A stretch of DNA of 64,000 bases from the IMG/VR virus record IMGVR_UViG_3300044259_000172; one strand, 5' to 3'. The translations under genes and the position numbers were made by a program. The notes beneath the pieces were generated by a model. That model had not been told where the DNA came from. It searched no databases and saw only the letters and a list, made by a program, of their open reading frames with translations. Below are positions 11,276 to 49,919 of this stretch, in pieces. Every line of letters starts with the position of its first letter. Within the stretch, counting starts at the first letter, position 1. The stretch comes from a virus (taxonomy: Duplodnaviria > Heunggongvirae > Uroviricota > Caudoviricetes).

Positions 11276-11304
11276 CTTATATCATATCAATTTTAGAATG
11301 TAAA
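11276..11304 (-). promoter_or_regulatory. T4-early-like promoter (TTTACA-17-TATAAG)
   Basis: minus-sense aatTTACAttctaaaattgatatgaTATAAGgaaataATG. Confidence 0.45.
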
Positions 11305-27607: not shown

Positions 27608-27613
27608 AATATT

Positions 27614-27689
27614 GGTGTGCCCTGTCAGGCTTGAACTGACGACCCTCTGCTTAAAAGGCAGATGCTCTAACCAACTGAGCTAAGGGCAC
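27614..27689 (-). tRNA. tRNA-Lys (anticodon UUU), CCA encoded
   Basis: minus-sense GTGCCCTtaGCTCAGTTGGTTAGAGCatCTGCCTTTTAAGCAGAgggtcGTCAGTTCAAGCCTGACAGGGCACaCCA: 7-bp acceptor, D-arm, anticodon loop CUUUUAA, T-arm all canonical. Confidence 0.8.
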
Positions 27690-28009: not shown

Positions 28010-28192
28010 TCAATCTTTTTCATTATTTTCTGGAAAATGAATATCAAATGGAGAAAATTCTAATTCCATACTTTTCATCTTAGAACTCACTTTATCAGCA
28101 AATTCTTGTAATTTTGGCAAATCGGATTTCTTTGATTTGCCAAAAAGATTCATCATATGAATTCTATCTCTATAAGATAAATTATCAGACAT
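28010..28192 (-). CDS. hypothetical protein (start revised to ATG 28192, 8-bp overlap with upstream stop)
   Basis: ORF-track start 28258 overlaps HD-domain gene by 74 bp. Confidence 0.4.
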   Translation of the reverse strand: MSDNLSYRDRIHMMNLFGKSKKSDLPKLQEFADKVSSKMKSMELEFSPFDIHFPENNEKD

Positions 28193-28844
28193 TTTTAAAT
28201 CTCTCCTGGTAATATCGATTGATATTCTTAATTGCCTTTTCAGACAATTCTTTTCCATTCTTAAAAGACTTAAATGGAACTAATTCAGGACGATTAACTA
28301 ATTGACCGATAAACTTTTTTCGAACTTTGTCAATAGCTTCCTGAGAAAATTGAGTCTTCCATTCTTTTTCAATGTTTTCATTTGTACGAAGAAACTTTTC
28401 ATAAGGATCTGCGAATGATAACAAATCAAGATCTAACAAAACTTGGCATGCAAATTTTTGATCTTCATTTTCCATTTTTTCCATAATAGGATTTTCAACA
28501 AGAAAATGATATTGAGTTGCTAAAATGAGATTAGACACGAAAAATGAATCAGAGGTAAGAGCCCAAATATAATCTTCTCCATGTTTATGAAGTTCATAAA
28601 ATTGAGCAGATTTTTCTTCATTTGTTCTGTGCATATTAGGCATCACATCATAAATAATATCATGATATAAAATTGCCTCGATCAAGAGCTTTTGCTCTTT
28701 CATAAAGATATCTTTTACAAAATTTCCCGAATGTAAATTAGATTTGAAATCAGACAACATCCTTAGAATGTGATCTTTGTTATGATAAAACCTATGAGGT
28801 TCTTCATATCTTTGAAAAATTTCGGTAATATTAATTTGTGTCAT
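28185..28844 (-). CDS. HD-domain metal-dependent phosphohydrolase-like protein
   Basis: YHNKDHILRM ... LYHDIIYD (H...HD motifs of HD superfamily). Confidence 0.5.
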   Translation of the reverse strand: MTQINITEIFQRYEEPHRFYHNKDHILRMLSDFKSNLHSGNFVKDIFMKEQKLLIEAILYHDIIYDVMPNMHRTNEEKSAQFYELHKHGEDYIWALTSDSFFVSNLILATQYHFLVENPIMEKMENEDQKFACQVLLDLDLLSFADPYEKFLRTNENIEKEWKTQFSQEAIDKVRKKFIGQLVNRPELVPFKSFKNGKELSEKAIKNINRYYQERFKNV

Positions 28845-36239: not shown

Positions 36240-36580
36240 TTTTGAATTTCTTTCTTGAGTTCTAATAGAAGATTTCTATCTATATTTACCATATCCAAAG
36301 ATCTATCTAATAGAACTAAAAATGTATTGATAATAAACCAATCCTCTTCCTTTGTGGATGCTTTTATAAGTCTTATGACATAAAGAGGATGGAATACATT
36401 AAATAAAATAATGAGATGATTTATTATCAATCTAAAATTGGGAGGCTTTTTCCCGTTTTTTAATTTTGAAATCAATTTCTTTAAATGGGTTATTCTGACC
36501 AGATCTTCTTCCAAATCATCTACATGGAATTCATTGTTCAGAAACATTTTTGCTGAAGAATACACTTCTTGTTTTGTCAT
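36236..36580 (-). CDS. hypothetical protein (about 103-114 aa; start probably the internal Met at 36547)
   Basis: ORF track. Confidence 0.4.
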   Translation of the reverse strand: MTKQEVYSSAKMFLNNEFHVDDLEEDLVRITHLKKLISKLKNGKKPPNFRLIINHLIILFNVFHPLYVIRLIKASTKEEDWFIINTFLVLLDRSLDMVNIDRNLLLELKKEIQK

Positions 36581-37112
36581 GCGGAGGTCTTACGTGTCCT
36601 TGTAAAGCTACTGAGACCTTGCGATAAACCTCTAATGCCTGATTAGGAGAAAATCTAGAAGAAAAATTCTTCAAAAATGATTGATAATCTCCAATTTTAC
36701 AAAAGTCTCGCATTTCAGTAGCACTGATATTATATTTATCGCGCATAGCAAAATTCAAAACTCCTAATTTGGATTTATAATCCTTTTGATATTTCTTAAA
36801 CAGTGAAGAAAATTCCTCACATCTATCACCACCTACAATAAAATTGATTTCATCATATTCATCAGAATTAAAAGAATCAATAATTCCAAAAATTCCGGTT
36901 TTTCCAAGATTTGAAAGATAATCTCCAAACCCCATCTGATAAATGATATCATATTTTTCATCAAATGAAAGAGGATCGGTTTTGTTATTTTTAGTAAAAG
37001 TAGGGCAAATGAAAAATTCACCCTCTAAATGTTTTCCAAAGTTAAATAATTTCTCATGACCGATATGAGGAGGGTTAAATCTCCCATATGCTATATTTGC
37101 TATCATTTTCAT
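36531..37112 (-). CDS. HxGH nucleotidyltransferase, NMN adenylyltransferase (NadM)-like
   Basis: GRFNPPHIGH (G.F.P.H.GH) near N-terminus and ISATEMR (ISGT.IR-like) near C-terminus. Confidence 0.5.
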   Translation of the reverse strand: MKMIANIAYGRFNPPHIGHEKLFNFGKHLEGEFFICPTFTKNNKTDPLSFDEKYDIIYQMGFGDYLSNLGKTGIFGIIDSFNSDEYDEINFIVGGDRCEEFSSLFKKYQKDYKSKLGVLNFAMRDKYNISATEMRDFCKIGDYQSFLKNFSSRFSPNQALEVYRKVSVALQGHVRPPHDKTRSVFFSKNVSEQ

Positions 37113-37909
37113 TGTGATTTAAATTCTTCATATTTTGTATAAAAGATATTTGGAATTTGGACATTCTTTCGTTCCAATCCTTTGATGGTTTCTTCCAAAA
37201 CGAATGCACAAGATTTTAAAGAAAATCTCTTATCCATATTCTTCAAAATATCAATAGAATCCATCCTATATCCATTTTCTTGAGAATATCTTTCTGGAAT
37301 AATAGAATCTCTAAAATTTTTAAATGAATGACCTAGAATAAAAGGTTCATCTAAGATTTTTACAGGATTTACCAAATATTTTCCAGTAGCTTCGGACTTA
37401 TATGTATAGGTAGATTTAATCAGTCCTTCAAATAGAGTATAACGGACCCTTTGAAAAGTATTAACCTTTGTTCGATCCATAGAAAGAATTACAGGATTAT
37501 GGACAATATTTACAAGATGAAATAATAGTTCATTTCTATAAAGTGCTTTAAATGGATCATTCGAAGAAACAGTGGTAGCTTCCTTAACCCAATCATCATA
37601 AATATTCTTTTGTGAAATGATATTAATATCAACTTGGACATCCTGGAAACACAAGAAAATTGTATTTCCATGCGTTTCGATTTTATATCCAGACTTTACA
37701 AATAGACCTAGTAGTTGAGAGATTTCATGGTCACTATAAAGAGCTACATCAATATCTCCAAATTTAGCATTAGGATTTGCCGAATTTGATGATCCTATAA
37801 ATTTAAAATCACTGCCTCTAAATCCTAGATTAAGAATAAATTGATTCACTTTCTTCTTGTCATCTTGATTTGCATCTCGAGTTAAGCCCTTAAAAATCTT
37901 ACCACCCAT
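37109..37909 (-). CDS. putative Pol-beta-superfamily nucleotidyltransferase-fold protein
   Basis: IGSSNSANPNAKFGDIDVALYSDHE fits the GS-x(9-13)-DxD nucleotidyltransferase signature. Confidence 0.45.
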   Translation of the reverse strand: MGGKIFKGLTRDANQDDKKKVNQFILNLGFRGSDFKFIGSSNSANPNAKFGDIDVALYSDHEISQLLGLFVKSGYKIETHGNTIFLCFQDVQVDINIISQKNIYDDWVKEATTVSSNDPFKALYRNELLFHLVNIVHNPVILSMDRTKVNTFQRVRYTLFEGLIKSTYTYKSEATGKYLVNPVKILDEPFILGHSFKNFRDSIIPERYSQENGYRMDSIDILKNMDKRFSLKSCAFVLEETIKGLERKNVQIPNIFYTKYEEFKSQ

Positions 37910-37910
37910 A

Positions 37911-38702
37911 TTAATTCACTTCTCCAAAAATTTTGTCATTAAGAGGAAAATCATCCTTATTAAGATCTAAACATAATTTTACTAGTTTATCATCTATTTT
38001 CATTATAATTCCTTCATAGATTTCGCCATTCCTTGGTTTAATAGATTTAAAATATTCCACAAGTTTATTCTTGATTTTGTATCTAAGTTCCCTATATTGC
38101 TTTTTGAAGGAAAAGATGTCAGGGTGAGAATCAGCCAATTCCTTTATTTCTTGCCCTAAATTTTTATCAAATTCTACCACAATTCCACCAGGAAGCTTAA
38201 AATTAACCCCTTCTACTTCAGGCCATTTTCCATACATAGAAAATTTAACATCATGAAGAATAAAAGTGTCGGCTACAAATGTATCATGAGGAAATCTAAT
38301 AGTAAAGGATCGATATTCATCAATAACCTTTGAATATTTCAATGGAAAATATTCAAAAGAAATATCTTGCCCCTTCTCAGGATATTGATTTGCAATATTA
38401 ACCCTAATAAACCTTTGAAAAGATTCAGAATCAATTAGAGTTTGTCCAATCAATCCAATATCTTTGGAGAAATCTGTTTCTTTTGCCCAGTAAACATATT
38501 GGTAATAGGAATAGCATTCAGGAGAATTTGCTGTCTGAAAATACATATCCCCTTCACTATCAATTCCAAATGAGAAGAAAATTCCATCTTCCTTTTTTGT
38601 TTCAAAGATCAAATTACCCATATGATTATGGATATAATCCCACATAGAAATTTGATCTCTAAAAGAGCAATTATAGATATGAGGAATAGATTTCCGTTTC
38701 AT
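37911..38702 (-). CDS. hypothetical protein (263 aa)
   Basis: ORF track; in same tightly packed operon as the ThyA-like gene. Confidence 0.5.
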   Translation of the reverse strand: MKRKSIPHIYNCSFRDQISMWDYIHNHMGNLIFETKKEDGIFFSFGIDSEGDMYFQTANSPECYSYYQYVYWAKETDFSKDIGLIGQTLIDSESFQRFIRVNIANQYPEKGQDISFEYFPLKYSKVIDEYRSFTIRFPHDTFVADTFILHDVKFSMYGKWPEVEGVNFKLPGGIVVEFDKNLGQEIKELADSHPDIFSFKKQYRELRYKIKNKLVEYFKSIKPRNGEIYEGIIMKIDDKLVKLCLDLNKDDFPLNDKIFGEVN

Positions 38703-39706
38703 TATTTAAGACTCCAATAATTGGTTTGAACTCTCTCACCTTTAAAAGAGAACGATCTTGTCAATTTAAAATTTTTCAATAATGAATGATCCACTGAATC
38801 TGTATTCAGAATAGATGGGCAGTGATCATTCACATTTACAAATAATATTTTGTCAAACTTATCACACTTTTTATAATAAGTAAATTCAAATAATGCTAAT
38901 TTTTCTAAAAAAATGAAATAATCAAAATGTCCATTCTGATCAATTAAAGACATATTAATCCAATCAATCTCTCCTTCATCAAGATTAATCATAGTCTTTG
39001 AAAAGACAAATTTAAGAAAATCTATAAGATCACTCCATCTATTTTCAAAGACTTCAACAAAATAAAAATTGTTTATATTAATTCCAGTAAGATTAAAAAT
39101 TTCTTTAAATTCTTTTCCTGTTCTATTTTTTATCCATTCAATGCAATCTTTCTTTATAGAAGATAAAGGAATATGACTAGATTGAGAAGCCATTTTAGCC
39201 CCATTAGCCTTCACTTCAATATCTTCTCCATTTGATAATTGCATATCTCCAGAATTTTTAGCCTTTTTCGACCCCTCAGTTAGAAGAATAAACCCGTATT
39301 CACCTTTTCCTACAGAATTCTTTGAAAATGAAGTAGGAACATAATTTAATAATTTGGTAAGATTATAATTTGTTAATTTTGGATTAATAATATCATTCAA
39401 AGAAATTTGAGTTTTATAAGAAAGATTCAAATAATCTTGATCAAGAATTTTACCGCCGGTAATATCTTTAACCAATGATAAGATTTCTGTTGATGATTTT
39501 CCAGTATCTGGATCAAATAAAACTTCATTCATAAAATAACTAAAATCAGGGGAATTAAAGGAAATTCCCCTGGTTTCAAAGAGTTCTTTAGAAGCCATTT
39601 CTATTTTATCGGAAGTCATAATATAATAGGACTTATAAAGATATTGATAATCATTACACTGATCGATCCTCTTGGACAATTCAGTTTTTAGATCAGAAAT
39701 TTCCAC
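38702..39706 (-). CDS. hypothetical protein (334 aa)
   Basis: ORF track; 1-bp overlaps with neighbours. Confidence 0.5.
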   Translation of the reverse strand: MEISDLKTELSKRIDQCNDYQYLYKSYYIMTSDKIEMASKELFETRGISFNSPDFSYFMNEVLFDPDTGKSSTEILSLVKDITGGKILDQDYLNLSYKTQISLNDIINPKLTNYNLTKLLNYVPTSFSKNSVGKGEYGFILLTEGSKKAKNSGDMQLSNGEDIEVKANGAKMASQSSHIPLSSIKKDCIEWIKNRTGKEFKEIFNLTGININNFYFVEVFENRWSDLIDFLKFVFSKTMINLDEGEIDWINMSLIDQNGHFDYFIFLEKLALFEFTYYKKCDKFDKILFVNVNDHCPSILNTDSVDHSLLKNFKLTRSFSFKGERVQTNYWSLK

Positions 39707-39708
39707 AT

Positions 39709-40503
39709 TTATGCCTTAAATTTATCTGCTGCATATTTTAGATGTTCGATGAAATAATCATATGAAGTAAGTTTGGAATGAACAGTCATATCAATAAAAT
39801 CAATGATCTCACCATCTACAAAATTATGATTTGCATTATCCAATTTAGCCCACTGAATTGCATCTTCCCAATGCTTTTCATAAATATGAGCAGAACCTTG
39901 ATTGATTGTCAAAATTCCGAGATTAACATCAATTCCTCTTTGAAGCAAAAGGATTTGAACAACTTTTGACATCATTGTGAATGTGAATGAATCATACCCA
40001 AATCCCCAAATCATATCCTGAGAACGCATATTGACAACAGTACATAGCTTATTGTTTCTAATAAAGAATTGCATAGAGGTTGTACAAGGAACATCCTTGG
40101 ATCCTCTCGGATTTTCTCTCCAAATATTAAGAAATGCTTGACGAGAATCATTGTCAGCAATCAAAGAATCTACAACATAAGAAACTTGATCAATGAATTT
40201 TGGACCATAAGCTCCATTCAAAAATACTCCATTATCGGAATAATTTACATAAGATTTCATATATTGAGTAATATCAGATACTTTATTAGATCCTGAACAA
40301 ATCCACCACGCTTCACCAAAAGCAAAGGAATAATTAAGCTTTCTATCCTTTAGTGTGATAATTGGATCAAGCATATCAAATTTAATTTGGTATCCTACAA
40401 ATTCTTTGATGAGTTGACCTCTAGGTGAGACTTCATCCCCAAATGAAATAATATCATTAATACAATTTTGCCATTTTAAATTAATATCAAACAATTTAAT
40501 CAA
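39709..40503 (-). CDS. gp42: ThyA-fold pyrimidine hydroxymethylase, most consistent with deoxycytidylate (dCMP) hydroxymethylase (T4 gp42-like)
   Basis: VPCTTSMQFFIRNNKLCTVVNMRSQDMIWGFGYDSFTF aligns to ThyA [38 protein letters not shown] with catalytic Cys conserved and the pyrimidine-recognising Asn replaced by Asp (GYDSF), as in dCMP hydroxymethylases. Confidence 0.55.
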   Translation of the reverse strand: MIKLFDINLKWQNCINDIISFGDEVSPRGQLIKEFVGYQIKFDMLDPIITLKDRKLNYSFAFGEAWWICSGSNKVSDITQYMKSYVNYSDNGVFLNGAYGPKFIDQVSYVVDSLIADNDSRQAFLNIWRENPRGSKDVPCTTSMQFFIRNNKLCTVVNMRSQDMIWGFGYDSFTFTMMSKVVQILLLQRGIDVNLGILTINQGSAHIYEKHWEDAIQWAKLDNANHNFVDGEIIDFIDMTVHSKLTSYDYFIEHLKYAADKFKA

Positions 40504-41000
40504 ACCTTTTCTTTATCAATAACAAATGAATAATAGAATGCTAAATAAGCAGCGCAATCAATAAGACTATCAGCTTTTCCTTCAAAATTTGGAGAAGATT
40601 TAGAATTAAAAAGAGATTCAATTCTTTGGATCTTTGTCATAATCATATGAATATATGAAAAATCTTCAAATGGAAAATAATTAATTCTTGGATCATCAAG
40701 TCTAAATGTTTCATCATTAGCCTTGTTAGAATTATAATCTAAAGTCTTTTTTCTTAAAATAGAAAAAGTATCTTCGGAAATATTTTTATCCGTCAAAAAA
40801 TTATAATAATCTTTTACTACTCCAAAGATATAAATGAGTTCTTCTTTTGGAATTCCTGAATGATCAATTTTTTGAGTAGAAACCCAATCATCAATAAAGT
40901 AAACTAATTCATTAACATAGGTACATTCTTCTGCATATTGAGGACCTGAAAATGGAAAATTACCTTCATAATCCTCAAATAGTCTAATACTTTCAATCAT
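40500..41000 (-). CDS. hypothetical protein (166 aa)
   Basis: ORF track. Confidence 0.5.
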   Translation of the reverse strand: MIESIRLFEDYEGNFPFSGPQYAEECTYVNELVYFIDDWVSTQKIDHSGIPKEELIYIFGVVKDYYNFLTDKNISEDTFSILRKKTLDYNSNKANDETFRLDDPRINYFPFEDFSYIHMIMTKIQRIESLFNSKSSPNFEGKADSLIDCAAYLAFYYSFVIDKEKV

Positions 41001-41042
41001 AAATAACCTTTAATTTTCTAAGTATAGTTGAATATACATCAT

Positions 41043-41261
41043 TTATTCTGGAAAATACACCGGAATAAAAATGTAATTTTCAGAATTTACTTCAAAATCT
41101 CTAGACTTAGAAGATTGCTTAAGAGCAGCTCTAGCTTTTCCCTCCGTAGCATAAATTTTAGAAGTGAGAGAAGAATATCCTCCTCCAGTCTTTACTCGAG
41201 TTCCATCCTTTTTAGCGATAACAACACCTAGAAGTTTAGCCATTTTTAACATTCTCCACAA
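41043..41261 (-). CDS. small protein, paralog A of a duplicated pair (72 aa)
   Basis: GGYSSLTSKIYATEGKARAALKQSSKSRDFEV...IPVYF, similar to 41745..41948. Confidence 0.45.
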   Translation of the reverse strand: MWRMLKMAKLLGVVIAKKDGTRVKTGGGYSSLTSKIYATEGKARAALKQSSKSRDFEVNSENYIFIPVYFPE

Positions 41262-41745
41262 TTTGATCCCAATGAATAGGATAATAATTAGTCATTTCCA
41301 ATGAAATATTCATATGGTTGTCTGAAATTTCTTTTCTCATTCTATGGACATGTCCATGAACATTTAATTTAACTCTATCTGTATTCACCAAAACTGGTCG
41401 ATGAGTGAATAAAATTTCTCTTTGAGGTTGCCAGGATTCCATAATCTTTTCGAAATATTTTAAATATTCCTTCATTGGAAATTTGTCATGATTACCAAGA
41501 ATAAGACGCTTATGGCCATTAAGCCTAGGCATAATCCTATGGAAAGATTCAATATCAAATGAAATATCACCCAAACAATACCATTTATCGGTTGGCTTGA
41601 CGAATTCATTATGCCTTTCAATGATAGTTTCATCCATATCTTTAATCGAATCAAACCCTGGCCTAACTTGATCACCTTCATAATTAATGAATTTGAGAAT
41701 ATTAGAATGTCCGAAATGGTGATCTGAACTAAACCAAACATTCAT
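41236..41745 (-). CDS. calcineurin-like metallophosphoesterase
   Basis: DHHFGH, LGDISFD, GNHD, GHVH motifs. Confidence 0.65.
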   Translation of the reverse strand: MNVWFSSDHHFGHSNILKFINYEGDQVRPGFDSIKDMDETIIERHNEFVKPTDKWYCLGDISFDIESFHRIMPRLNGHKRLILGNHDKFPMKEYLKYFEKIMESWQPQREILFTHRPVLVNTDRVKLNVHGHVHRMRKEISDNHMNISLEMTNYYPIHWDQIVENVKNG

Positions 41746-41948
41746 TATAGATATACCGGGACGATTTCAATTTCACCAGCCTCCCACTGTCTAAACTTAC
41801 TAGAACCAGCCATAGCTGTTCTAGCTGAATTTTCAGAAGCATAAGTCTTTCCAATTTCTGAATATCCTCCATTTTGAGTTTTTACGATATCTCTTGTATT
41901 CTTATAAAGAGCAATCCATGCGATAGGTAGATCAACTTCTTGAACCAT
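41745..41948 (-). CDS. small protein, paralog B of duplicated pair (67 aa)
   Basis: GGYSEIGKTYASENSARTAMAGSSKFRQWEA...VPVYL. Confidence 0.45.
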   Translation of the reverse strand: MVQEVDLPIAWIALYKNTRDIVKTQNGGYSEIGKTYASENSARTAMAGSSKFRQWEAGEIEIVPVYL

Positions 41949-41959
41949 TATTTTCTCCT

Positions 41960-42382
41960 TTAAATTTTTAAAACAACTTCTTGGATAAGCATTTTACAAA
42001 GACCATCAATTGGATAATCCTCATTTTCGTCTGTTCCATTCCATAGAAAAATCTTTTCTCCAACATCAGTCTTTTGAGGAATAAGTGATTCCCTAAGAGT
42101 AATACCTGAAAGAAGGAATACATGAAGAGTATAAGATGGATATCGAATAGTTGCTATAGGAAACCAATCAGACTCGGATGTCGTATAACCGAGTTCTTCC
42201 TTAAATTCTCGAGCATTAGCTTCATATGCCCCTTCATTTTCTTCAACTTTTCCACCTACAAAAATTGACTTTCCAGACATAGGTCCATGATCCTTTTGAA
42301 CAAAGACAAATTTTCCAGACTTAGTCATTGCAATAGAAAGAGTATAGGCTGGGCGAAATGCGAATGGAATATCTTCTGTCAT
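41960..42382 (-). CDS. NUDIX hydrolase
   Basis: Nudix box GGKVEENEGAYEANAREFKEELG. Confidence 0.7.
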   Translation of the reverse strand: MTEDIPFAFRPAYTLSIAMTKSGKFVFVQKDHGPMSGKSIFVGGKVEENEGAYEANAREFKEELGYTTSESDWFPIATIRYPSYTLHVFLLSGITLRESLIPQKTDVGEKIFLWNGTDENEDYPIDGLCKMLIQEVVLKI

Positions 42383-42567
42383 TCTGAAATCTTTTCTTCA
42401 GAATTAAATGGATTGATTACAAAATCATGATTATCTACATCATAATCAGTAAATACATTTCCCATAGTATCTGTGTCCAAAAATACGATCAATTCTTGAA
42501 CAACTTTCCTTTGAAGACCACGATTGAAAATTGTAATTCTTACTTGCTTACCTTTATATTCGTTCAT
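42379..42567 (-). CDS. hypothetical protein (62 aa)
   Basis: ORF track. Confidence 0.4.
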   Translation of the reverse strand: MNEYKGKQVRITIFNRGLQRKVVQELIVFLDTDTMGNVFTDYDVDNHDFVINPFNSEEKISE

Positions 42568-42578
42568 ATATTTTTCCT

Positions 42579-42770
42579 TTAATCTAAATCTACAGTTGGA
42601 TTAATACCAACTCTATTAAAATCCCATTTATTATAAGCTAAATACGTTCTGCCTAAAGTATCCTCATATAAATTTACTGTTTTCCCATTCACAATATCAA
42701 TAAATCTATTATCTTCTATAAGTTTCATAGGAAAACCAAAGGTTAAAAACTTTAACATAGATGTTCTCAT
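42579..42770 (-). CDS. hypothetical protein (63 aa)
   Basis: ORF track. Confidence 0.4.
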   Translation of the reverse strand: MRTSMLKFLTFGFPMKLIEDNRFIDIVNGKTVNLYEDTLGRTYLAYNKWDFNRVGINPTVDLD

Positions 42771-43246
42771 AACTCAAACACTGTCAATTCTATATTGGGG
42801 TATTTTTTTAGGTTTTCTTTGATGATTTCTTCTATCTTTGACCAATCACCTCCGCCGAGTCCTGCTCCAATTTTAGGAATTGCAATTAGAACTGGTCGAT
42901 CCAAAAGCTCATAATATGAGAAGAATTTATCAAAACATGAATTGATAGCATCGTATGAAATTCTCATTCCAGGACCATATGTTTCTTGGGTGAAGAGATT
43001 CCAGACATCAGTTCCCGAATAATTACAAGCTAATTGATTAGTTCCTACTAAATCATTTGAATATCTCGATAAGCACAATTTTCTATAAGCAGTGAAAGAT
43101 AAAGGGAACTTTGCTTTAAATTGTTTTGCAAATCCAGCACTCATAACTCCTAAACAATTCACTCCATGAGCAATAGCATCATATTCAGAAATAAATTCAA
43201 AAAGATTTCCCCTTTTATAATTAATCTTGGATTGGGACAAGTTCAT
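42767..43246 (-). CDS. macro-domain protein (ADP-ribose binding/hydrolase family)
   Basis: YKRGNLFEFISEYDAIAHGVNCLGVMSAGFAKQF and PKIGAGLGGGDW match macro-domain GDI..DAIVNAAN..GGGV and P..G.G..G motifs. Confidence 0.65.
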   Translation of the reverse strand: MNLSQSKINYKRGNLFEFISEYDAIAHGVNCLGVMSAGFAKQFKAKFPLSFTAYRKLCLSRYSNDLVGTNQLACNYSGTDVWNLFTQETYGPGMRISYDAINSCFDKFFSYYELLDRPVLIAIPKIGAGLGGGDWSKIEEIIKENLKKYPNIELTVFEL

Positions 43247-43529
43247 ATGCCTTTACAATTTTTTCAATTTGACGAACCTCAAAAATTTCTCGTTCTTTGA
43301 AATATTCGAATTCATATGGACCTTCATATTGAGATTCTGTTGAGCCTACAGCATATTCAGTTTCGTAAAATTTTCCTGTAGATTTATCTCTAAAAATTTG
43401 ATTATGAATCGTTGACCATCTAGTCTGATCTATAATTTTGTTTTCAATAGTTTCAAAATTTTCATCATCATCAAATGCAATATCAATTAATTGCTGCTTT
43501 GTAAACTTTTTCGAAATATATTTTCTCAT
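43221..43529 (-). CDS. hypothetical protein (102 aa)
   Basis: ORF track. Confidence 0.45.
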   Translation of the reverse strand: MRKYISKKFTKQQLIDIAFDDDENFETIENKIIDQTRWSTIHNQIFRDKSTGKFYETEYAVGSTESQYEGPYEFEYFKEREIFEVRQIEKIVKAYELVPIQD

Positions 43530-44014
43530 AGTTTAAATCCTCTATGTTCTACTAAATCATTAAAATATTCAAGTTCTACAGGAACCATTTCAACATTACA
43601 CAATTCGAACATTTTCTTTACAGGTTCAGAATTCCATCTAGATTCAAATTCAGGATTTTCAATGTAAACAAATTTTTTAATTCCGGCCTGAATTGTATGC
43701 TTACAACAATCGATACAAGAGAAATGAGTAGAATAAATTGTACAATCTACAACTGACCTTCCAGATCTTCCAGCAGAAAGGATTGCATTAATTTCCGCAT
43801 GTTCAGTATACAAAAGTTTCACTTCTCTAGCATTATACCAAGCTAACAAATCCGGCATCTTTCTAGGAAATCCATTATACCCCGATGAAATAATTTCTTG
43901 ATCCTTTGTTATTACTGCCCCAACTTTAGTAGAAGGATCTTTTGATAATTTTGATGTCAAAAGGGCAGTTTGAAGAAAAAATATATCCCAACGAGTATCA
44001 ATTTTACTTGTCAT
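43526..44014 (-). CDS. cd: dCMP deaminase (T4 cd-like)
   Basis: HAEINAI and SCIDCCKHTIQAGI (H-A-E and PCxxC zinc-binding motifs). Confidence 0.8.
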   Translation of the reverse strand: MTSKIDTRWDIFFLQTALLTSKLSKDPSTKVGAVITKDQEIISSGYNGFPRKMPDLLAWYNAREVKLLYTEHAEINAILSAGRSGRSVVDCTIYSTHFSCIDCCKHTIQAGIKKFVYIENPEFESRWNSEPVKKMFELCNVEMVPVELEYFNDLVEHRGFKL

Positions 44015-44168
44015 TATTTGTTATAATCTCCGTTTGTTTGATATTTTTAGGAGTTAGGAAATGAATAATTTCATTTCCTTTTAAATGCCCTATAGAAAAT
44101 CCAAGAATTACCCCACCTATATAAATTGCAGCAATCGTATTGATAAAACAAAACTTTGAAATTTTCAT
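44004..44168 (-). CDS. small membrane protein (54 aa, MKISKFCFINTIAAIYIGGVILGFSIGHLKGNE...), missed by ORF track
   Basis: hand translation; ATGA overlaps with both neighbours. Confidence 0.4.
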   Translation of the reverse strand: MKISKFCFINTIAAIYIGGVILGFSIGHLKGNEIIHFLTPKNIKQTEIITNNDK

Positions 44169-44983
44169 ATAAATCTCCTAGTAATTGGAATTTCTACTTC
44201 TTCAACATCCGGATTTCCACATTTTTCTTTCAGAAAATACAAAATTCTATTCTTTTCTTCCTCATCTTTAGGTTTGAAGAACCATCTTTTAGATTTTCCA
44301 TCCCAATAAAATCCATTTGATTTTACAATATCTTTATAATTAAATCCTACATTGGCATAAAGAACAATTTCAGGAGTATAAGCCTTTTCTAAAAGGGATT
44401 GAAATGCAGTTTTACCATCTTTGAGTGGAAATGAAAGAGCGTGCAATGTAGCTCTACAATCATTTTCAGCTCTATGATGTTCAAACCAAAATCCTAGACG
44501 AAACGCAATATAATCTAAAACTTTTGAAGAAATATTCAAAGAACCCCAATCAGGATCATTAGCTGAACATCCCCAAACAATTTTCTTTAGAGAAGGAAAT
44601 CTTTTTTCCATCTTTGATCTATCAAATTTAGCATTATGAGCAATTGCGACATCAGCTTTATTAAATAGGGAAGTAACTGAATGATCTTCAAAATGTTTGC
44701 CTTCAAGCATTTCATCATTCATCCCAGTCAAAGATTTAATCTTCTCAGATAAAGGCTTTGAAGGTTGCTCAAACCCTACATAAGGCTTATAAACTTTTGT
44801 GATTTTAAAATCATCTGTAAATGCAAATGGCAAAATACAAATTTCTGTAATTTCCGAATCATCTTCAAGCCCTGTTGTTTCTGTATCAACAACAATCCCC
44901 AAATTTGTTCCTTCTGCATCAGTTGAATAAATGTTCTGACGATCGAAGAACTTAATGATTTTGTCTTTATTTTCTAATGTCAT
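44165..44983 (-). CDS. DnaQ-like DEDDh 3'-5' exonuclease
   Basis: Exo I VVDTETTGL and Exo II IAHNAKFD motifs. Confidence 0.7.
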   Translation of the reverse strand: MTLENKDKIIKFFDRQNIYSTDAEGTNLGIVVDTETTGLEDDSEITEICILPFAFTDDFKITKVYKPYVGFEQPSKPLSEKIKSLTGMNDEMLEGKHFEDHSVTSLFNKADVAIAHNAKFDRSKMEKRFPSLKKIVWGCSANDPDWGSLNISSKVLDYIAFRLGFWFEHHRAENDCRATLHALSFPLKDGKTAFQSLLEKAYTPEIVLYANVGFNYKDIVKSNGFYWDGKSKRWFFKPKDEEEKNRILYFLKEKCGNPDVEEVEIPITRRFI

Positions 44984-45687
44984 TTAACCTGTATAAACCT
45001 ATGATTGCCAAATTTGGCCTTAGTGTCGATAATGCAACATGTCAAGGCTCCGCCAAAAACTGCTCCTGTATCGATATTAATTTGAGATGAAAGGACTGAT
45101 GGTTTATTATCAAGAGGAGTGTGACCATGTACCACAAAATACCCTCCTTCAAATTCTCCATCATAAGCATTTGATCGCCTGGACCAAATCAAAGTTTGCT
45201 CAGATTGTTCTTCAAGAGTAAGAGAAGGATCGAGACCTGCATGAACAAAAACTACATGATCAACTTGATAATAAAGTTTTGTATTCAAATAAAATTCTTC
45301 ATGTTCTTTAGAGAACAAATCTTGAAATTTGAGAGTATCCTTTGTATAGCCATAGGATTCAAGACACTGCCATCCTCCATTATATACCCAATTTTCCTGT
45401 GCAGACCTATTTCCCCGGAAAGCTTCAATCAAAAAATCCTCATGATTGCCTCGAAGAGTAGTCACTTTATTAATAGGACTATCATGATCTAGAATATTTT
45501 TCTGTAAATCAATGATATAATCTACTACACCTTTAGAATCAGGGCCTCGATCAATATAATCTCCCAGAAAAATAATTTCAGCCCCATCTTCAGGGTTCTT
45601 AATATCAGCATCTTCGAAAATCAATGGAATAATTTTCTCGAGAAGATCAAGGCGACCATGAATGTCGCCAATTGAATAAGTTAACAT
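44980..45687 (-). CDS. Ser/Thr protein phosphatase-type metallophosphatase (lambda PPase/ApaH-like)
   Basis: GDIHG, GDYIDRGP, GNHE motifs. Confidence 0.7.
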   Translation of the reverse strand: MLTYSIGDIHGRLDLLEKIIPLIFEDADIKNPEDGAEIIFLGDYIDRGPDSKGVVDYIIDLQKNILDHDSPINKVTTLRGNHEDFLIEAFRGNRSAQENWVYNGGWQCLESYGYTKDTLKFQDLFSKEHEEFYLNTKLYYQVDHVVFVHAGLDPSLTLEEQSEQTLIWSRRSNAYDGEFEGGYFVVHGHTPLDNKPSVLSSQINIDTGAVFGGALTCCIIDTKAKFGNHRFIQVK

Positions 45688-45735: not shown

Positions 45736-46653
45736 TTAATGTACAATCCTTTGTTCAAGTTCTTTTCTAAATTGTACGACCCCCGATCCCAAATTTCCTC
45801 CTAAATTATCAACTTCATTATCTAGAAGACTTCTAACTTGGTGTTCAACTGGAGAAGCATGCATCGGTTTTGAAACAATTAATCTATCAAATAGCTTGAG
45901 ATCATCCTGAATAGTAGGTCTATTTCCATCATGAGTTAAATATGAAACTCTTGCACATCTAGCCGCAGAAATTCTTTTTACCATTTCAATCAAATGATAA
46001 CTATTTCTTTTCACAATTTCTAAATTATTAGAATTATTTGAATTTTCAGCTTCCCAAATACCAGTTGCCACTAGATGATCTGTTACCGCATAATAATCAT
46101 ATTCTCTAATAAAAGGTAAATGCCATTCATCGGCATATAGTTGTCTAGGTTCACTAGAAATGACGATATCATTCATTTTATATGCTAATTCTTGAAATTC
46201 AGGTTGAGCATCTGGATGGGCTCTAAGTTCAAAGAAATTATCCATATCAGTTGCTGTCATAATTACAGTAATATGAGACCAAGGTTCAATTACTCTATTG
46301 ACAATTTGCTTATGAACCCCAGTCCAATAAAGCAGATATGCTAGTCCAATTGCAGTATATCCTGAAAGTTTCCAAACTGATTGAGCCAAGAATTTCTTGA
46401 AAGGCGACAATTCAACCTTTGCTTGCATCCCAGATTGATTTGCTCCCCAATGAACAGGAGAAGCCATATCATTCATAATATTTGACACAATTTTCTTAAA
46501 TGGAATAGCTCTTGAAGAAGCAGCATTTCTAGAAAATACTCGATGAGTCATGAATTCAGAATGAATAAATCGAGGATATTTCAGTTCCCATGTAGTTATT
46601 CTCTTTCCTGTAGTAGTAACAGAATCAAGCAAAAGTTTAGCAGAAATAGTCAT
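45736..46653 (-). CDS. thyX: flavin-dependent thymidylate synthase ThyX
   Basis: MTHRVFSRNAASSRAIP fits ThyX RHRx7-8S signature (RHRIASYNELSGRY). Confidence 0.6.
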   Translation of the reverse strand: MTISAKLLLDSVTTTGKRITTWELKYPRFIHSEFMTHRVFSRNAASSRAIPFKKIVSNIMNDMASPVHWGANQSGMQAKVELSPFKKFLAQSVWKLSGYTAIGLAYLLYWTGVHKQIVNRVIEPWSHITVIMTATDMDNFFELRAHPDAQPEFQELAYKMNDIVISSEPRQLYADEWHLPFIREYDYYAVTDHLVATGIWEAENSNNSNNLEIVKRNSYHLIEMVKRISAARCARVSYLTHDGNRPTIQDDLKLFDRLIVSKPMHASPVEHQVRSLLDNEVDNLGGNLGSGVVQFRKELEQRIVH

Positions 46654-47192: not shown

Positions 47193-47645
47193 TTAATCCT
47201 TAAATTCAAATGGAGTAGTTTCCAAAATTTTACGATGTCTAGGCTCAGGAGCTACCCATCCTTCAGGTTTAATAACATCCAACCCATTTGTATTCGGTCT
47301 AGAAGCCTTTGAACCTCTCACTTTTTCCATATTTGCAGATTGAACTGCATCCCAGTGGGCATCCCCATTTACCTTCATGAGATCAAGAGTTCCTACAGCA
47401 AAATAAATCAAATCGATCAAAGCATCAATAAGACCTACAGTATCTCGCTCTTCAATTGCAATAAGACCTTCATCCAATTCTTCTCGAATCATAACATCCA
47501 AACGTTGGCGAAGATTATGGACTGTAGGTTCCCAGTCTTTATTGAATTCAAATTTTTCATGAAATGCTTGAAGATCAGAAAAAAGTTTTGTTTTCATTGT
47601 ATTAATGTATTGATTATTTTGAGCATAATTTGTGGTAATATTCAT
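47193..47645 (-). CDS. MazG-like all-alpha NTP pyrophosphohydrolase (possible dCTPase/dUTPase analogue of T4 gp56)
   Basis: IREELDEGLIAIEERDTVGLIDALIDLIYFAVG matches the MazG/HisE EE.GE...A......EL.DvL motif. Confidence 0.55.
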   Translation of the reverse strand: MNITTNYAQNNQYINTMKTKLFSDLQAFHEKFEFNKDWEPTVHNLRQRLDVMIREELDEGLIAIEERDTVGLIDALIDLIYFAVGTLDLMKVNGDAHWDAVQSANMEKVRGSKASRPNTNGLDVIKPEGWVAPEPRHRKILETTPFEFKD

Positions 47646-48508
47646 AAAAATTCTTTCATATTGTATGATTTAGTAAAGTCTCCATAGAGAACATAAATGG
47701 AACTTTTAGTATTAATTCGCTTGACGTCATTTAAATTTAAAGATCTTACTCCGTCAAAAGATCTTATTTCTGATGAACCTTTATAAATTTCATCATCATT
47801 ACTAGTTTTATAATTACAGATTATACTACAAATATTCTTCCTTTTAAACAGAAATGTACAGTAATCATCTATAAATTTTAAATCTTCATGGTTAAATACT
47901 CCACCTTTTACAGAATAATCATCATAAGAAGCTGTAATATAAGGAGGATCAAAGAAATATAAATCTACTGAAGTTGAAGATTGTTCAAGAAATACTTTAT
48001 AATCTAATTCTTTAATATTTTGAAATCTAGAAGAAATAAATTTTATTGATTTCAATCTTGCATCAAATTGAGCAGATTTCGTAAAGAAATGCCAAGTTGA
48101 AGTATATTTTCCATATTTGTTAAGTCTATAAAGACCAAAGTGGGCACAATTTTGAAGATACCAAAATAGAACCGCTCTATTTAAAGTATTGATTTCGGTC
48201 TCATTGAATTCATCTCTCTTTTGATAAAAGAAATCATGACTATTCATATTTTTATCTGTTAATATAATTCTTGATAAATCTTCAAATTCTTGAGAATTAC
48301 ACCATCTATAAAGATTGATGATATCGAAATTCAGATCATTGCCAAAACAAGAACCTTCTTTTCCAAAAAATCCTGAAATTAATCCTGTCCCCATAAATGG
48401 TTCTACTATAGAAATTTTAGAAGATCCGAGGATTTCCCGGATCTTCTTTTTCTCCTTCAATTTAGAACCAGCCCATTTAAATGGGCTTAGTTTAAGTTGG
48501 TCATTCAT
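47642..48508 (-). CDS. dam: DNA N6-adenine methyltransferase (Dam); start revised to ATG 48508
   Basis: FKWAGSK near N-terminus and DPPY catalytic motif; ORF-track extension overlaps helicase gene. Confidence 0.8.
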   Translation of the reverse strand: MNDQLKLSPFKWAGSKLKEKKKIREILGSSKISIVEPFMGTGLISGFFGKEGSCFGNDLNFDIINLYRWCNSQEFEDLSRIILTDKNMNSHDFFYQKRDEFNETEINTLNRAVLFWYLQNCAHFGLYRLNKYGKYTSTWHFFTKSAQFDARLKSIKFISSRFQNIKELDYKVFLEQSSTSVDLYFFDPPYITASYDDYSVKGGVFNHEDLKFIDDYCTFLFKRKNICSIICNYKTSNDDEIYKGSSEIRSFDGVRSLNLNDVKRINTKSSIYVLYGDFTKSYNMKEFL

Positions 48509-49919
48509 TAAATTTAAATCCTCCTGATTTCGTCTTATCAAAAATAGGAGAATCATTTATTTGAGATTTCGGAGTAGCTTTTTTATTTCCTTCGTAAAGT
48601 TTATCTTCAGGATTTAAATCTGTTCCTTCAATGATATTATCATCTACCTCAAAAACTGTCATTCTTGCCTTATCTACTCCTAGCATAATTCTTCGATATT
48701 TTGATTTATCATCATATCTAGATTTCAATTGTTTAATCATAATCAAACCCTTGGATTCATATTCTTCTGTATTAATGATCCCCCAAATAAGGTCGGCAGT
48801 CATAGGAACACCATGAGATTCGGAAGTATTTTCAAGAGACAAGTCGGAGGCATCTTGTCCTGAACGATTTGTCTGCATACCTGTCCAGATTACTAGATCA
48901 TTTTCCTGAGATAATCCTCTCAATTCTTCTGCAATTGCTTTATTGTAAGAATATAGATTTGATGGATCCTTCACTCTAACAGAAGCGCAGATAGAAAGAT
49001 AATCTACAATTACAATTTTAGGTTTAAATCCCTTTTTAATCTGAAGATCTTTTAAAAGAGCTCTAAAATGATTTGCATTTGCTGAAGTCATAGGATATTC
49101 TTTGATGAATAACCTTCCTTCAGTATGAGATTTAATATCGGATATCTTTTGAAGATAATGAGGCTTTAGAATTGATCTAACTTCAGAAATTTTAAGATGA
49201 GTTAGATTTGCATCAATTCTTTCACGAATTTTAAATTCGGACATTTCCAAAGTGATATAAAGAACATCATATCCTTGATGAAGATATGAAGCTGCAAAAT
49301 CACATAAAAATCCGGTTTTAAATGTATTTGTTCCACCCATAAAAATATTCAAGGATTTTGTTGGAACTCCACCTTGAGTAATTTTATTGAAAATAGGAAG
49401 TTTAAATGGAATTAGATGTTCTTTTGAATTATAAGCATCATGGGCCTTTTCAGCATCTTCAAAATAATCATGACCTACTGTATTATCAAATGAAATTGCA
49501 AGAGCATCTTTAACGAGATCAGGAATTGCATCTCGAGGAGTATTTTTATCTCCGCCATCATAAATTTGAATGGCGGAAGAAATTGCTAAATAAAGAGCTC
49601 TATCTTGGCAAAATTTTTCTGCCAAAGATTTAATCCATTCATCTTTCATCTTATAACGATTCATAAGATGAGTTTCATTTAGATTTTTGAACTCTTCGAT
49701 ATCATGATCATTAAGATCATTTCTTTTTCTTACTTCAATATTCAATTCTTCAGGTGAAGGAATTGACCCATAGTTATTAGCATAACTCTGAATCTCTTCA
49801 TAAACAGCCTTTTCAACTTTTTCTTCAAAGTATTCAGGCTTTATATAAGGAAGTACTTCTCTTGAAAAATTATCATTATGAATTAATGCATTAAGAATTG
49901 CCTGAGATTTTGATGTCAC
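48501..49919 (-). CDS. gp41: replicative DNA helicase (T4 gp41, DnaB family)
   Basis: Walker A GGTNTFKTGF, DnaB-like H3/H4 motifs, size 472 aa, position next to uvsX. Confidence 0.85.
   Translation of the reverse strand: MTSKSQAILNALIHNDNFSREVLPYIKPEYFEEKVEKAVYEEIQSYANNYGSIPSPEELNIEVRKRNDLNDHDIEEFKNLNETHLMNRYKMKDEWIKSLAEKFCQDRALYLAISSAIQIYDGGDKNTPRDAIPDLVKDALAISFDNTVGHDYFEDAEKAHDAYNSKEHLIPFKLPIFNKITQGGVPTKSLNIFMGGTNTFKTGFLCDFAASYLHQGYDVLYITLEMSEFKIRERIDANLTHLKISEVRSILKPHYLQKISDIKSHTEGRLFIKEYPMTSANANHFRALLKDLQIKKGFKPKIVIVDYLSICASVRVKDPSNLYSYNKAIAEELRGLSQENDLVIWTGMQTNRSGQDASDLSLENTSESHGVPMTADLIWGIINTEEYESKGLIMIKQLKSRYDDKSKYRRIMLGVDKARMTVFEVDDNIIEGTDLNPEDKLYEGNKKATPKSQINDSPIFDKTKSGGFKFNE

Follow-up and report, generated by a model that had tools for sequence, protein, structure and literature searches.

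The window, meaning the whole 64-kb stretch of DNA analyzed here, encodes T4-type replication genes, for example a gp43 homolog, and its DNA polymerase is at most 36% identical to that of any cultured phage. The source phage is a deep-branching, T4-like member of an uncultured, low-GC lineage. On the minus strand, a macrodomain gene with its start codon at position 43246 precedes a Nudix hydrolase gene whose low end is at position 41960 (table 1). Both genes named in the preliminary description of the locus are real and lie exactly where it placed them, but they are not adjacent as it had stated, because two small open reading frames (ORFs) of 63 and 62 aa lie between them. All four genes are co-directional, with overlaps or gaps of at most 11 nt, and a scan between the macrodomain and Nudix genes for promoters and terminators found no signal above chance. 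The 63-aa ORF has no detectable counterpart in related contigs, and a nucleotide search of positions 41000–45000 against 50,697 phage records returned no match. The macrodomain and the Nudix protein are two separate enzymes within a tightly packed, co-directional, early-type gene block.

Table 1. Features of the window, with positions counted from its first nucleotide.
Feature	Position	Strand	Evidence or remark
Calcineurin-like metallophosphoesterase, phrog_547	41236..41745	-	52–71% identity to counterparts downstream of Nudix in the lineage
67-aa ORF, paralog of 41043-41261	41745..41948	-	Counterpart after the Nudix gene in contig L082
Minimal Nudix hydrolase, 140 aa, canonical Nudix box G44...Y66	41960..42382	-	Closest to MutT, NudG, MTH1, and RppH in profile and fold searches
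62-aa ORF immediately preceding the Nudix gene	42379..42567	-	Same position in related contig L082, 39% identity
63-aa ORF between macrodomain and Nudix genes	42579..42770	-	No Pfam or PHROG family match
Tk.4/AdfM-family protein of 159 aa, a stand-alone macrodomain with a Gln-type active site	42767..43246	-	Profiles, alignments, AF2 model
102-aa protein, phrog_6343, no assigned function	43221..43529	-	Upstream neighbor of the macrodomain gene; adjoins it in L082 too
dCMP deaminase, head of syntenic block	43526..44014	-	Counterpart in contig L165
MazG-like pyrophosphohydrolase	47193-47645		Near the Nudix gene
NADAR protein, gp30.3/AdfN-type, 160 aa	11277..11759	-	Pfam Phage_30_3

The macrodomain ORF matches phrog_335, the family of T4 Tk.4, with an E value of 1.6e-42, and the Pfam Macro model (PF01661) marginally (E = 1.4e-4; 22.2 bits, just above the cutoff of 22). 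Its match to the NCBIfam model antitoxin_DarG (NF048014; E = 6.4e-21) covers the macrodomain part only, spanning profile positions 1–147 of 338 at 75 bits, below the cutoff of 250. Among solved structures, those closest in sequence are the DarG macrodomains of Mtb and Thermus, with DarG matches in phmmer at E = 1e-12 to 4e-11, and SCO6735 of Streptomyces coelicolor (PDB 5E3B; E = 3e-10, about 27% identity). The AF2 model (pLDDT 90.9) recovers Poa1p, DarG, BT1257, TARG1, and SCO6735 in Foldseek at TM scores of 0.73–0.82, with yeast Poa1p, an ADP-ribose-1''-phosphate phosphatase, marginally ahead of DarG. The top 19 Foldseek and top 15 phmmer matches in the PDB are all of the TARG1/DarG/SCO6735/Poa1p class; MacroD2 and macroH2A are confined to Foldseek ranks 31–50 (TM 0.57–0.61). 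As judged from sequence and modeled fold, the protein belongs to this ALC1-like class and not to those of MacroD, PARG, or macroH2A.

Homologs of the macrodomain occur in 2148 phage records, mostly of T4-like and jumbo phages. Its match to Tk.4 of phage T2 has a blastp E value of 2e-17, and tk.4 of Acinetobacter phage 133 ranks second among viral models (BFVD) recovered with the AF2 model. The likeness to T4 Tk.4 extends beyond the shared family: both are stand-alone macrodomains of ∼155–160 aa encoded by T4-like phages, both have the invariant His, Asn, and Gln residues and the Gly-rich loops, and both genomes also encode a NADAR protein of the gp30.3/AdfN type. However, the window protein, from its uncultured lineage, is very divergent in sequence and its function is predicted. 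Gene context differs as well, as the window gene lies between those for dCMP deaminase and Nudix, whereas T4 tk.4 lies between vs and tk.

Residues of the predicted active site are strongly conserved. Both Gly-rich loops are kept (33-GVMSAGFA-40 and 126-IGAGLGGGDW-135), N30 is present in 202 of 202 homologs, H27 in 197 of 202, and Q87 in 200 of 203, with Lys at this last position in none. A conserved Asn is likewise found in DarG of DarTG2 systems (PDB 5M3I and 5M31; N22 in Thermus DarG) and in PhiKZ AdfM (gp104; N23; PMC13309987), which have the same fold and likely share with the window protein the substrate ADP-ribosyl-thymidine in ssDNA. They differ at the position of the catalytic Lys (K80 in DarG, K78 in PhiKZ AdfM; the TARG1 equivalent is Lys84): in both alignments with DarG, the first Lys of the TKKHW motif, at the Lys80 position, is matched by Gln87 of the window protein. 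Tk.4 of T2 also has Gln there, and H27, N30, and Q87 align with H24, N27, and Q85 of SCO6735, a protein of the same class that also has no DarT-binding domain. SCO6735 cannot hydrolyze thymidine-ADPr without Gln85, its residue at the Lys80 position (PMC9411070). Since the Gln of the Tk.4 family matches that of SCO6735 while DarG and PhiKZ AdfM have a catalytic Lys, phage AdfM proteins, as read from these alignments, come in two catalytic flavors, one with Gln (the Tk.4 family, almost always) and one with Lys (PhiKZ AdfM). The window protein differs from SCO6735, which is a bacterial chromosomal protein, in that K34 and K89, two residues implicated in activity on DNA substrates, are replaced by A37 and E88 in the alignment.

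The preliminary description had mentioned DarG-type removal of ADP-ribose from thymidine in DNA as an activity of macrodomains. This is borne out insofar as the protein is of the DarG/TARG1 type, has an intact signature for ADP-ribose binding and catalysis, and belongs to a phage family that counters DarTG2. A true DarG antitoxin was, however, ruled out. The window protein lacks three features of DarG, namely the DarT-binding domain at the C terminus, a neighboring darT gene, and Lys80, and the flanking ORFs (those of 102, 63, and 62 aa, dCMP deaminase, and Nudix) have no Pfam or PHROG match to DarT or DUF4433.

Studies of cultured phages suggest a role for the macrodomain. Knockout of tk.4 renders T4 sensitive to DarTG2, the single significant result for this gene, and Tk.4 was renamed AdfM, for anti-DarT factor macrodomain (bioRxiv 10.1101/2025.11.20.689424). 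PhiKZ AdfM strips T-ADPr in vitro (PMC13309987), and the T4 NADAR protein gp30.3/AdfN is an anti-DarTG1 factor (PMC11825919). The NADAR ORF of the window, already recognized as such in the preliminary description, matches Pfam Phage_30_3 at E = 2.9e-56 (189.6 bits, far above the cutoff of 36); its sequence makes it a true gp30.3/AdfN homolog and, by homology, the predicted anti-DarTG1 counterpart of the macrodomain. We suggest that this Tk.4/AdfM-family macrodomain acts as an ADP-ribosyl glycohydrolase, an antitoxin-like orphan. The two Gly-rich loops would bind the ADP-ribose moiety, and His27, Asn30, and Gln87 would form a water-activating site of the SCO6735 type rather than one built on the Lys80 of DarG. 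The enzyme most likely cleaves ADP-ribose off thymidine bases in phage ssDNA that DarT2-type toxins have modified, which would restore replication. The NADAR protein is predicted to reverse the guanine modification made by DarT1, so that together the two would constitute the two-pronged anti-DarT equipment of T4.

Alternatively, the macrodomain may act on something other than DarT2-modified DNA, such as proteins or RNA ADP-ribosylated by host defence transferases or by phage enzymes of the Alt/Mod type, or on ADP-ribose-1''-phosphate or O-acetyl-ADP-ribose. The leading Foldseek match to Poa1p, an Appr-1''-p phosphatase, and the replacement of the DNA-contact lysines of SCO6735 are consistent with this, as are the JGI and PHROG labels for the family ("O-acetyl-ADP-ribose deacetylase" and "phosphatase") and the ability of SCO6735 and TARG1 to strip protein-linked ADP-ribose as well. 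Yet the only genetic data for the phage family, those for T4 tk.4, show a phenotype specific to DarTG2, DarG and SCO6735, which act on DNA, match the protein best in sequence, and an anti-DarT1 NADAR is encoded in the same genome. We regard a different substrate as unlikely and favor activity on DarT2-modified DNA.

The Nudix ORF matches the Pfam NUDIX model (PF00293) at E = 7.3e-9. Residues 44–66 form a Nudix box, G44-x5-E50-x7-R58-E59-F-x-E62-E63-x-G65-Y, that fits the consensus GX5EX7REUXEEXGU perfectly and is the only one in a six-frame translation of the window. Its AF2 model (pLDDT 90.1) has Nudix-fold matches, led in Foldseek by MutT, MTH1, MutT2, and RppH. Profile searches of the PDB likewise place MutT (E = 9e-15), NudG (1.7e-13), and RppH (2.8e-13) ahead of ADPRase (2.9e-11), and the best NCBIfam matches are MutT-like. 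With these small Nudix enzymes the window protein shares a length of about 130–150 aa, a single Nudix fold, and the GGK motif at the start of the box, but identity to them is only about 20–25%. Among its homologs, a word-indexed search of 5.8 billion proteins recovered only the query itself, an exhaustive HMMER search of 1.84 billion representatives found four relatives with 36–56% identity, and tblastn found three phage records, none from a T-even phage. By sequence, the protein is a member of a small, almost unsampled phage clade.

The preliminary description had assigned the Nudix protein to the enzymes that act on ADP-ribose or NAD, a view at odds with its grouping first with NTP pyrophosphohydrolases of the MutT, NudG, MTH1, and RppH type. 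Single-sequence phmmer does rank a Bacillus-type ADP-ribose pyrophosphatase first among single-domain matches (E = 2.8e-5). A tandem-repeat protein outscores it in this search without having any significant stretch. In the ADPRase subfamily, a Pro is conserved ∼15 residues past the Nudix box. The window protein has Pro82 at +16 after the box, but this residue is not conserved among its relatives, and because only ∼10 residues precede the first core strand, the protein has no N-terminal ADPRase dimerization domain. Two specific identities were ruled out. T4 NudE.1, which acts on ADP-ribose, FAD, Ap3A, and NAD-RNA, is also encoded by a phage with a T4-like genome, but the two have no detectable similarity in sequence outside the Nudix box (blastp E = 8.5 against the nudE product of T2), and a NadM-type enzyme is excluded by the lack of a fused NMNAT domain. 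In T2, nudE lies ∼4 kb from tk.4; in T4-like phages, nudE usually belongs to a late gene cluster, next to the lysozyme gene (PMC9503650).

Neighbors of the Nudix gene are involved in nucleotide metabolism and include genes for MazG-like, ThyX, dCMP deaminase, pyrimidine hydroxymethylase-like, and metallophosphoesterase proteins. The Nudix protein is predicted to be a catalytically intact minimal hydrolase of the MutT/NudG/MTH1/RppH type that most likely acts on (d)NTPs or on another nucleotide of this cluster. One specific version makes it a pyrophosphatase of dCTP, or of another canonical dNTP, with a role like that of gp56 in T4: its dCMP product would supply the deaminase and the pyrimidine hydroxymethylase-like enzyme, and an unmodified base would be kept out of phage DNA. 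NudG, a CTP/5-methyl-dCTP pyrophosphohydrolase, and MutT2, which acts on dCTP and 5-methyl-dCTP, rank near the top in profile and fold searches, and the neighboring dCMP deaminase, ThyX, MazG-like protein, and thymidylate-synthase homolog point in the same direction. The closest phage relatives of this last protein bear the annotation pyrimidine or dUMP hydroxymethylase, and by its sequence it appears to have Asp at the position of ThyA Asn177. Nevertheless, the MazG-like pyrophosphohydrolase could already fill the role, and we consider this exact substrate doubtful within the broader assignment to nucleotide metabolism.

The remaining question is whether the macrodomain and the Nudix protein work together. 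In the window, as in three related metagenomic contigs (L082, L165, and L166), the macrodomain gene is the upstream one of the two; this order is kept despite different genes in between and protein identities of only 30–56%. Elsewhere the linkage is rare: any Nudix gene is found within 4 kb in 5 of 80 viral macrodomain loci, and a macrodomain gene within 5 kb in 1 of 80 viral Nudix loci. Linkage persists inside this phage lineage but is not general among viruses. The metallophosphoesterase gene is a constant downstream neighbor of the Nudix gene in the lineage, and it and the dCMP deaminase gene are part of the same conserved block, as plain vertical synteny of T4-like genomes would give. A search of the PDB with the metallophosphoesterase found one relative, the uncharacterized aq_1665, and no functional lead.

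If the two formed a single ADP-ribose-processing module, the macrodomain would release ADP-ribose carried by DNA, a protein, or a signal molecule. The Nudix protein, perhaps helped by the metallophosphoesterase, would then yield AMP and ribose-5-phosphate by splitting ADP-ribose, immune signals based on ADPR, or NAD derivatives. The shared strand, tight packing, and lack of promoter or terminator signals between the genes are compatible with such a module, as are the gene order retained in the related contigs, the phmmer match to the Bacillus enzyme, the Pro past the Nudix box, and the hydrolysis of ADP-ribose and NAD by T4 NudE.1. Against it are the precedence of MutT, NudG, RppH, and MTH1 over ADPRases in profile and fold searches, the missing ADPRase domain, the variable Pro82, the position outside the NudE.1 clade, the lack of an NMNAT fusion, the rarity of co-location, and the synteny of the block as a whole. 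On the evidence of sequence and model, the Nudix protein probably does not serve the macrodomain as a dedicated ADP-ribose partner, and we judge a joint module improbable. A version extended to the metallophosphoesterase seems more improbable still. In this scenario, one repair-and-disposal pathway of the uncultured T4-like lineage would have the Gln-type macrodomain strip ADP-ribose from phage DNA, and a novel, MutT-shaped Nudix enzyme and the phosphoesterase destroy the freed ADP-ribose or ADPR-derived immune signals. If so, the Nudix protein would represent an ADP-ribose-specific clade that could not be predicted from known ADPRase signatures.

We therefore lean toward a Tk.4/AdfM-type anti-DarT2 macrodomain and a separate Nudix enzyme of the MutT/NudG/MTH1/RppH type that is probably not its ADP-ribose partner. 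Homology, fold, conserved residues, and gene order underlie this reading, and from them we infer the substrates and the anti-DarT role. Several observations run counter to it. Identity to Tk.4 is only ∼32%, the slight lead of Poa1p over DarG in Foldseek makes a small-molecule substrate possible, and K34 and K89 of SCO6735 are not kept. Matches of the Nudix protein to characterized enzymes are all weak, with TM scores of 0.6–0.7 at the identities given above, and the consistent order of the two genes in all three informative related contigs could mean functional coupling. Because the Nudix protein looks MutT-like, a macrodomain–Nudix ADP-ribose module derived from domain co-occurrence over-interprets the Nudix protein. 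The macrodomain is a further member of a known phage counter-defence family and probably not part of a new module.

Of the other genes that had been grouped with the pair, the NADAR is borne out, whereas the NMNAT, HD, and SLOG assignments are weakly supported. The NMNAT-like ORF at 36531-37112 has only generic matches of the cytidylyltransferase-fold kind (CTP_transf_like, E = 1.9e-5, and cytidyltransferase PHROGs), and no NadD, NadR, or NadM model scores above its cutoff (19–21 bits for NadD models with cutoffs of 112–164), and a sequence search of the PDB found no match. The putative HD-domain ORF matches a PHROG annotated "phosphohydrolase" but no Pfam, NCBIfam, or PDB entry, and the putative SLOG-like ORF matches only a "DprA-like" PHROG but no PDB sequence. 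Nothing found points to Thoeris or DSR as targets, or to NAD reconstitution. What does recur is the pairing known from T4, in which both members are anti-DarTG factors. A Tk.4/AdfM macrodomain and a gp30.3/AdfN NADAR co-occur here, far from the enterobacterial T-even phages, and their co-occurrence in so distant a lineage supports DNA ADP-ribosylation as a widespread pressure on large phages.

The interval 41960-43246, which the preliminary description presented as a macro-domain protein next to a NUDIX hydrolase, corresponds exactly to the outermost coordinates of a pair of minus-strand ORFs. Adjacency does not hold, however, as ORFs of 63 and 62 aa intervene. Co-transcription of all four genes is likely because they face one direction, are tightly packed (overlaps or gaps ≤11 nt), and a promoter and terminator scan of the macro-Nudix interval gave signals no better than chance.

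The 159-aa ORF is securely a macrodomain. Pfam Macro barely passes its cutoff (22.2 bits vs. 22), and the assignment is made by matches to phrog_335 (E 1.6e-42), NCBIfam antitoxin_DarG (E 6.4e-21), and solved DarG macrodomains (E 1e-12 to 4e-11), together with an AF2 model (pLDDT 90.9) that superposes on Poa1p, DarG, BT1257, TARG1, and SCO6735 (TM 0.73-0.82). By tblastn, homologues are present in 2148 phage records, chiefly of T4-like and jumbo phages, and include gene tk.4 of T2, the product of which is 32% identical to the window protein in a direct comparison (E 2e-17). The second-best viral structural match is tk.4 of Acinetobacter phage 133. The window macrodomain is a very divergent addition to the known, recently characterised Tk.4/AdfM counter-defence family (AdfM, anti-DarT factor, macrodomain).

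Active-site residues place the protein relative to characterised enzymes. Gln87 aligns with Lys80, the earlier of the two Lys in the TKKHW motif, in both DarG alignments (numbering is corrected for an offset from the 10-residue tag on the PDB chains), whereas His24, Asn27, and Gln85 of SCO6735 are matched by His27, Asn30, and Gln87. Of 203 homologues compared (120 proteins from databases, the other 83 being ORFs of viral loci), 200 share Gln87 and not one has Lys there. Conservation is complete for Asn30 (202/202) and high for His27 (197/202). Little variation is seen in the second loop (P-K-I-G-A-G-L-G-G-G-D-W), and the position of Ser36 is Gly in 88% of members and variable in the rest. Because Gln87 is near-universal, is shared by T2 Tk.4, and aligns with Gln85 of SCO6735, macrodomains of the Tk.4 type, that of the window included, are classed by residue identity as Gln-type (SCO6735-like). 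The variant itself is already known: SCO6735 hydrolyses thymidine-ADPr without a Lys, by a proposed water-activation mechanism, and cannot do without Gln85 (PMC9411070). What is added is the distinction between a Gln-type site in the Tk.4 family and the Lys-type site of DarG and of PhiKZ AdfM, which keeps the Lys as K78 (PMC13309987). The window protein is not a DarG in the strict sense, as it lacks the Lys, the C-terminal DarT-binding domain, and a darT partner; the antitoxin_DarG match spans positions 1-147 of 338 (75 bits vs. a cutoff of 250), and none of the genes flanking the macro gene is a darT. The Gly-rich loop and the Asn/Asp, the loss of which would speak against activity, are both retained, and the domain looks catalytically competent. 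Very probably, it is a functional Tk.4-family ADP-ribosyl hydrolase.

Experiments in other phages point to a role. In a transposon screen of T4 on a DarTG2 host, tk.4 was the single gene required, and its clean knockout sensitised T4, leading to the name adfM (bioRxiv 10.1101/2025.11.20.689424). PhiKZ AdfM, named independently, strips thymidine-linked ADP-ribose in vitro (PMC13309987), and T4 gp30.3 (AdfN, NADAR) is the equivalent factor against DarTG1 (PMC11825919). The NADAR gene reported for the window is borne out as a clear gp30.3 homologue; with the macro gene also present, this distant phage therefore has the macro-plus-NADAR pair of T4. Most likely, the macrodomain would act as an orphan antitoxin, binding ADP-ribosyl-thymidine placed on single-stranded phage DNA by DarT2-type toxins. 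The N-glycosidic link would be hydrolysed through the His27/Asn30/Gln87 site and an activated water, releasing free ADP-ribose and restoring replication. On balance, we favor DarT2-type DNA modification as the main target.

The Nudix gene is uncharacterised and ordinary-looking. Its product matches Pfam NUDIX (E 7.3e-9), and its Nudix box, a perfect fit to the consensus (G44-x5-E50-x7-R58-E59-F-x-E62-E63-x-G65-Y) that opens with GGK as in MutT, is the only one in a six-frame translation of the window. A word-indexed search through 5.8 billion proteins recovered nothing but the query, and exhaustive HMMER against 1.84 billion representatives found four relatives (36-56% identity), with generic small Nudix proteins below; the clade is very sparsely sampled. 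The preliminary description proposed cleavage of ADP-ribose or NAD derivatives, and a Bacillus-type ADP-ribose pyrophosphatase (ADPRase) does top the single-domain matches in single-sequence phmmer (E 2.8e-5; a higher-scoring tandem-repeat protein contains no stretch that is significant). By the measure of clustering with MutT-like enzymes, however, that proposal is unsupported, as MutT (9e-15), NudG CTP pyrophosphohydrolase (1.7e-13), BdRppH (2.8e-13), and MTH1 all precede ADPRases (2.9e-11) in matches to the clade profile. The closest structural neighbors of the Nudix AF2 model (pLDDT 90.1) are MutT, a Rhodospirillum Nudix, RppH, MTH1, and MutT2, and none of the 50 listed structural matches is described as an ADPRase. 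The top NCBIfam matches are MutT-like, all far under cutoffs; the N-terminal ADPRase domain is absent, and Pro82, at +16 from the box, is unconserved among relatives. Hydrolysis of ADP-ribose or NAD coupled to the macrodomain is possible, if improbable. With moderate confidence, the most likely substrate is a (d)NTP or related nucleotide of the adjoining nucleotide-metabolism pathway; the specific version, a dCTPase by analogy with T4 gp56, is doubtful. Kinship to T4/T2 NudE.1 was rejected, as nothing past the shared fold was detected (E 8.5).

Features of the window; rows from the MazG-like gene to the thymidylate-synthase homologue run in transcription order
Feature	Coordinates	Strand	Remark
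Putative Dam-type N6-adenine DNA methyltransferase	47642-48556	-	304 aa; motifs FKWAGSK and FFDPPY
MazG-like pyrophosphohydrolase	47193-47645	-	
ThyX	45736-46653	-	
PrpE/ApaH-like metallophosphatase	44980-45687		
DnaQ-like exonuclease	44165-44983		
dCMP deaminase	43526-44014	-	
phrog_6343 protein	43221-43529		just before macro gene
Macrodomain ORF	42767-43246	-	159 aa
Two small ORFs			63 and 62 aa
Nudix ORF	41960-42382	-	140 aa
67-aa ORF	41745-41948	-	after Nudix gene
phrog_547 metallophosphoesterase	41236-41745		
72-aa ORF	41043-41261	-	
DUF1599-like protein	40500-41000		
Thymidylate-synthase homologue	39709-40503	-	closest phage relatives annotated pyrimidine or dUMP hydroxymethylases
Three consecutive ORFs	37109-39619	-	266, 263, and 305 aa
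Cytidylyltransferase-fold protein	36531-37112		Pfam E 1.9e-5; phrog_3041 E 1.1e-23
HD-domain candidate	28185-28844		PHROG 'phosphohydrolase'
tRNA-Lys (anticodon UUU)	27613-27689	-	
SLOG-like candidate	24985-25557		PHROG 'DprA-like'
Putative RNA ligase (Rnl2-like)	16107-17162	-	351 aa; KLHGTN resembles motif I
gp30.3 homologue (NADAR)	11277-11759		Pfam Phage_30_3, E 2.9e-56

The surroundings of the macro and Nudix genes are a nucleotide-metabolism block. Linkage of the two is rare among viral loci: a Nudix of any kind lies within 4 kb of a macro homologue in five of 80, and a macro gene within 5 kb of a Nudix relative in one of 80. Yet in related metagenomic contigs L082, L165, and L166, which carry the Nudix's own small clade, the macro gene is 0.4-1.9 kb upstream, and linkage is therefore a property of a conserved block in the lineage of this phage. 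Strong vertical synteny of T4-like genomes explains it equally well. The interval varies: two small ORFs separate the genes in one contig, and the others have a 435-aa protein, either alone or joined by two additional ORFs. The Nudix is tied most closely to the phosphoesterase, which directly follows it in L164, L165, and L166, and not to the macrodomain; the dCMP deaminase is also retained in L165. The 435-aa protein (L165 3382-4689 and L166 502-1809; 68% identity; no Pfam match) is downstream of macro and upstream of Nudix, roughly where the window has its two small ORFs, and in L166 the two further ORFs precede the Nudix. The 67- and 72-aa ORFs that flank the metallophosphoesterase gene are paralogues (40% identity, E 1e-8) with no family match, and L082 and L164 have counterparts in equivalent places.

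Other parts of the proposed anti-defence toolkit fared less well. The ORF described as NMNAT-like scores far below cutoff with NadD models and has no PDB match. The HD-domain and SLOG-like proteins each have a PHROG match ('phosphohydrolase' and 'DprA-like', respectively) and no other. No Nampt/Adps/Namat-type genes were found among the window ORFs scanned, and nothing bears on Thoeris or DSR as targets.

The hydroxymethylase-like gene, ThyX, dCMP deaminase, and MazG-like enzyme suggest T4-style modified-cytosine DNA. The thymidylate-synthase homologue has Asp at what we take to be the Asn177 position of ThyA (RSQDMIWGFGYDSF), hinting at dCMP specificity. The three consecutive ORFs between it and the cytidylyltransferase-fold gene have no significant Pfam match and no PHROG match, and are candidate base-hypermodification enzymes; L164 carries a partial homologue of the 305-aa one (48% identity). 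Because L165 has a 580-aa NTP_transferase protein (719-2461; faint fructosamine-kinase match) between the dCMP deaminase and macro genes and a C5 DNA methylase downstream (6009-7229), relatives are suggested to interleave DNA or nucleotide modification genes with the macro/Nudix block. In T2, nudE is only ∼4 kb from tk.4, and the 'nudE' CDS (NC_054931.1 63001-63972; 1002-1973 of the extracted region, L163) encodes one 323-aa product, overlaps lysozyme gene e with a stop in common, and looks like an annotation artefact.

The phage represents a new T4-like lineage. Nucleotide-level search with positions 41000-45000 of the window against 50,697 phage records gave no match; T4-type replication genes are encoded, and identity of the DNA polymerase to its counterparts in cultured phages does not exceed 36%, cyanomyoviruses being the nearest. 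GC content is ∼30% and almost all genes are on the minus strand. The tRNA-Lys is the sole tRNA and sole Rfam match, and an Rnl2-like RNA ligase may also be encoded.
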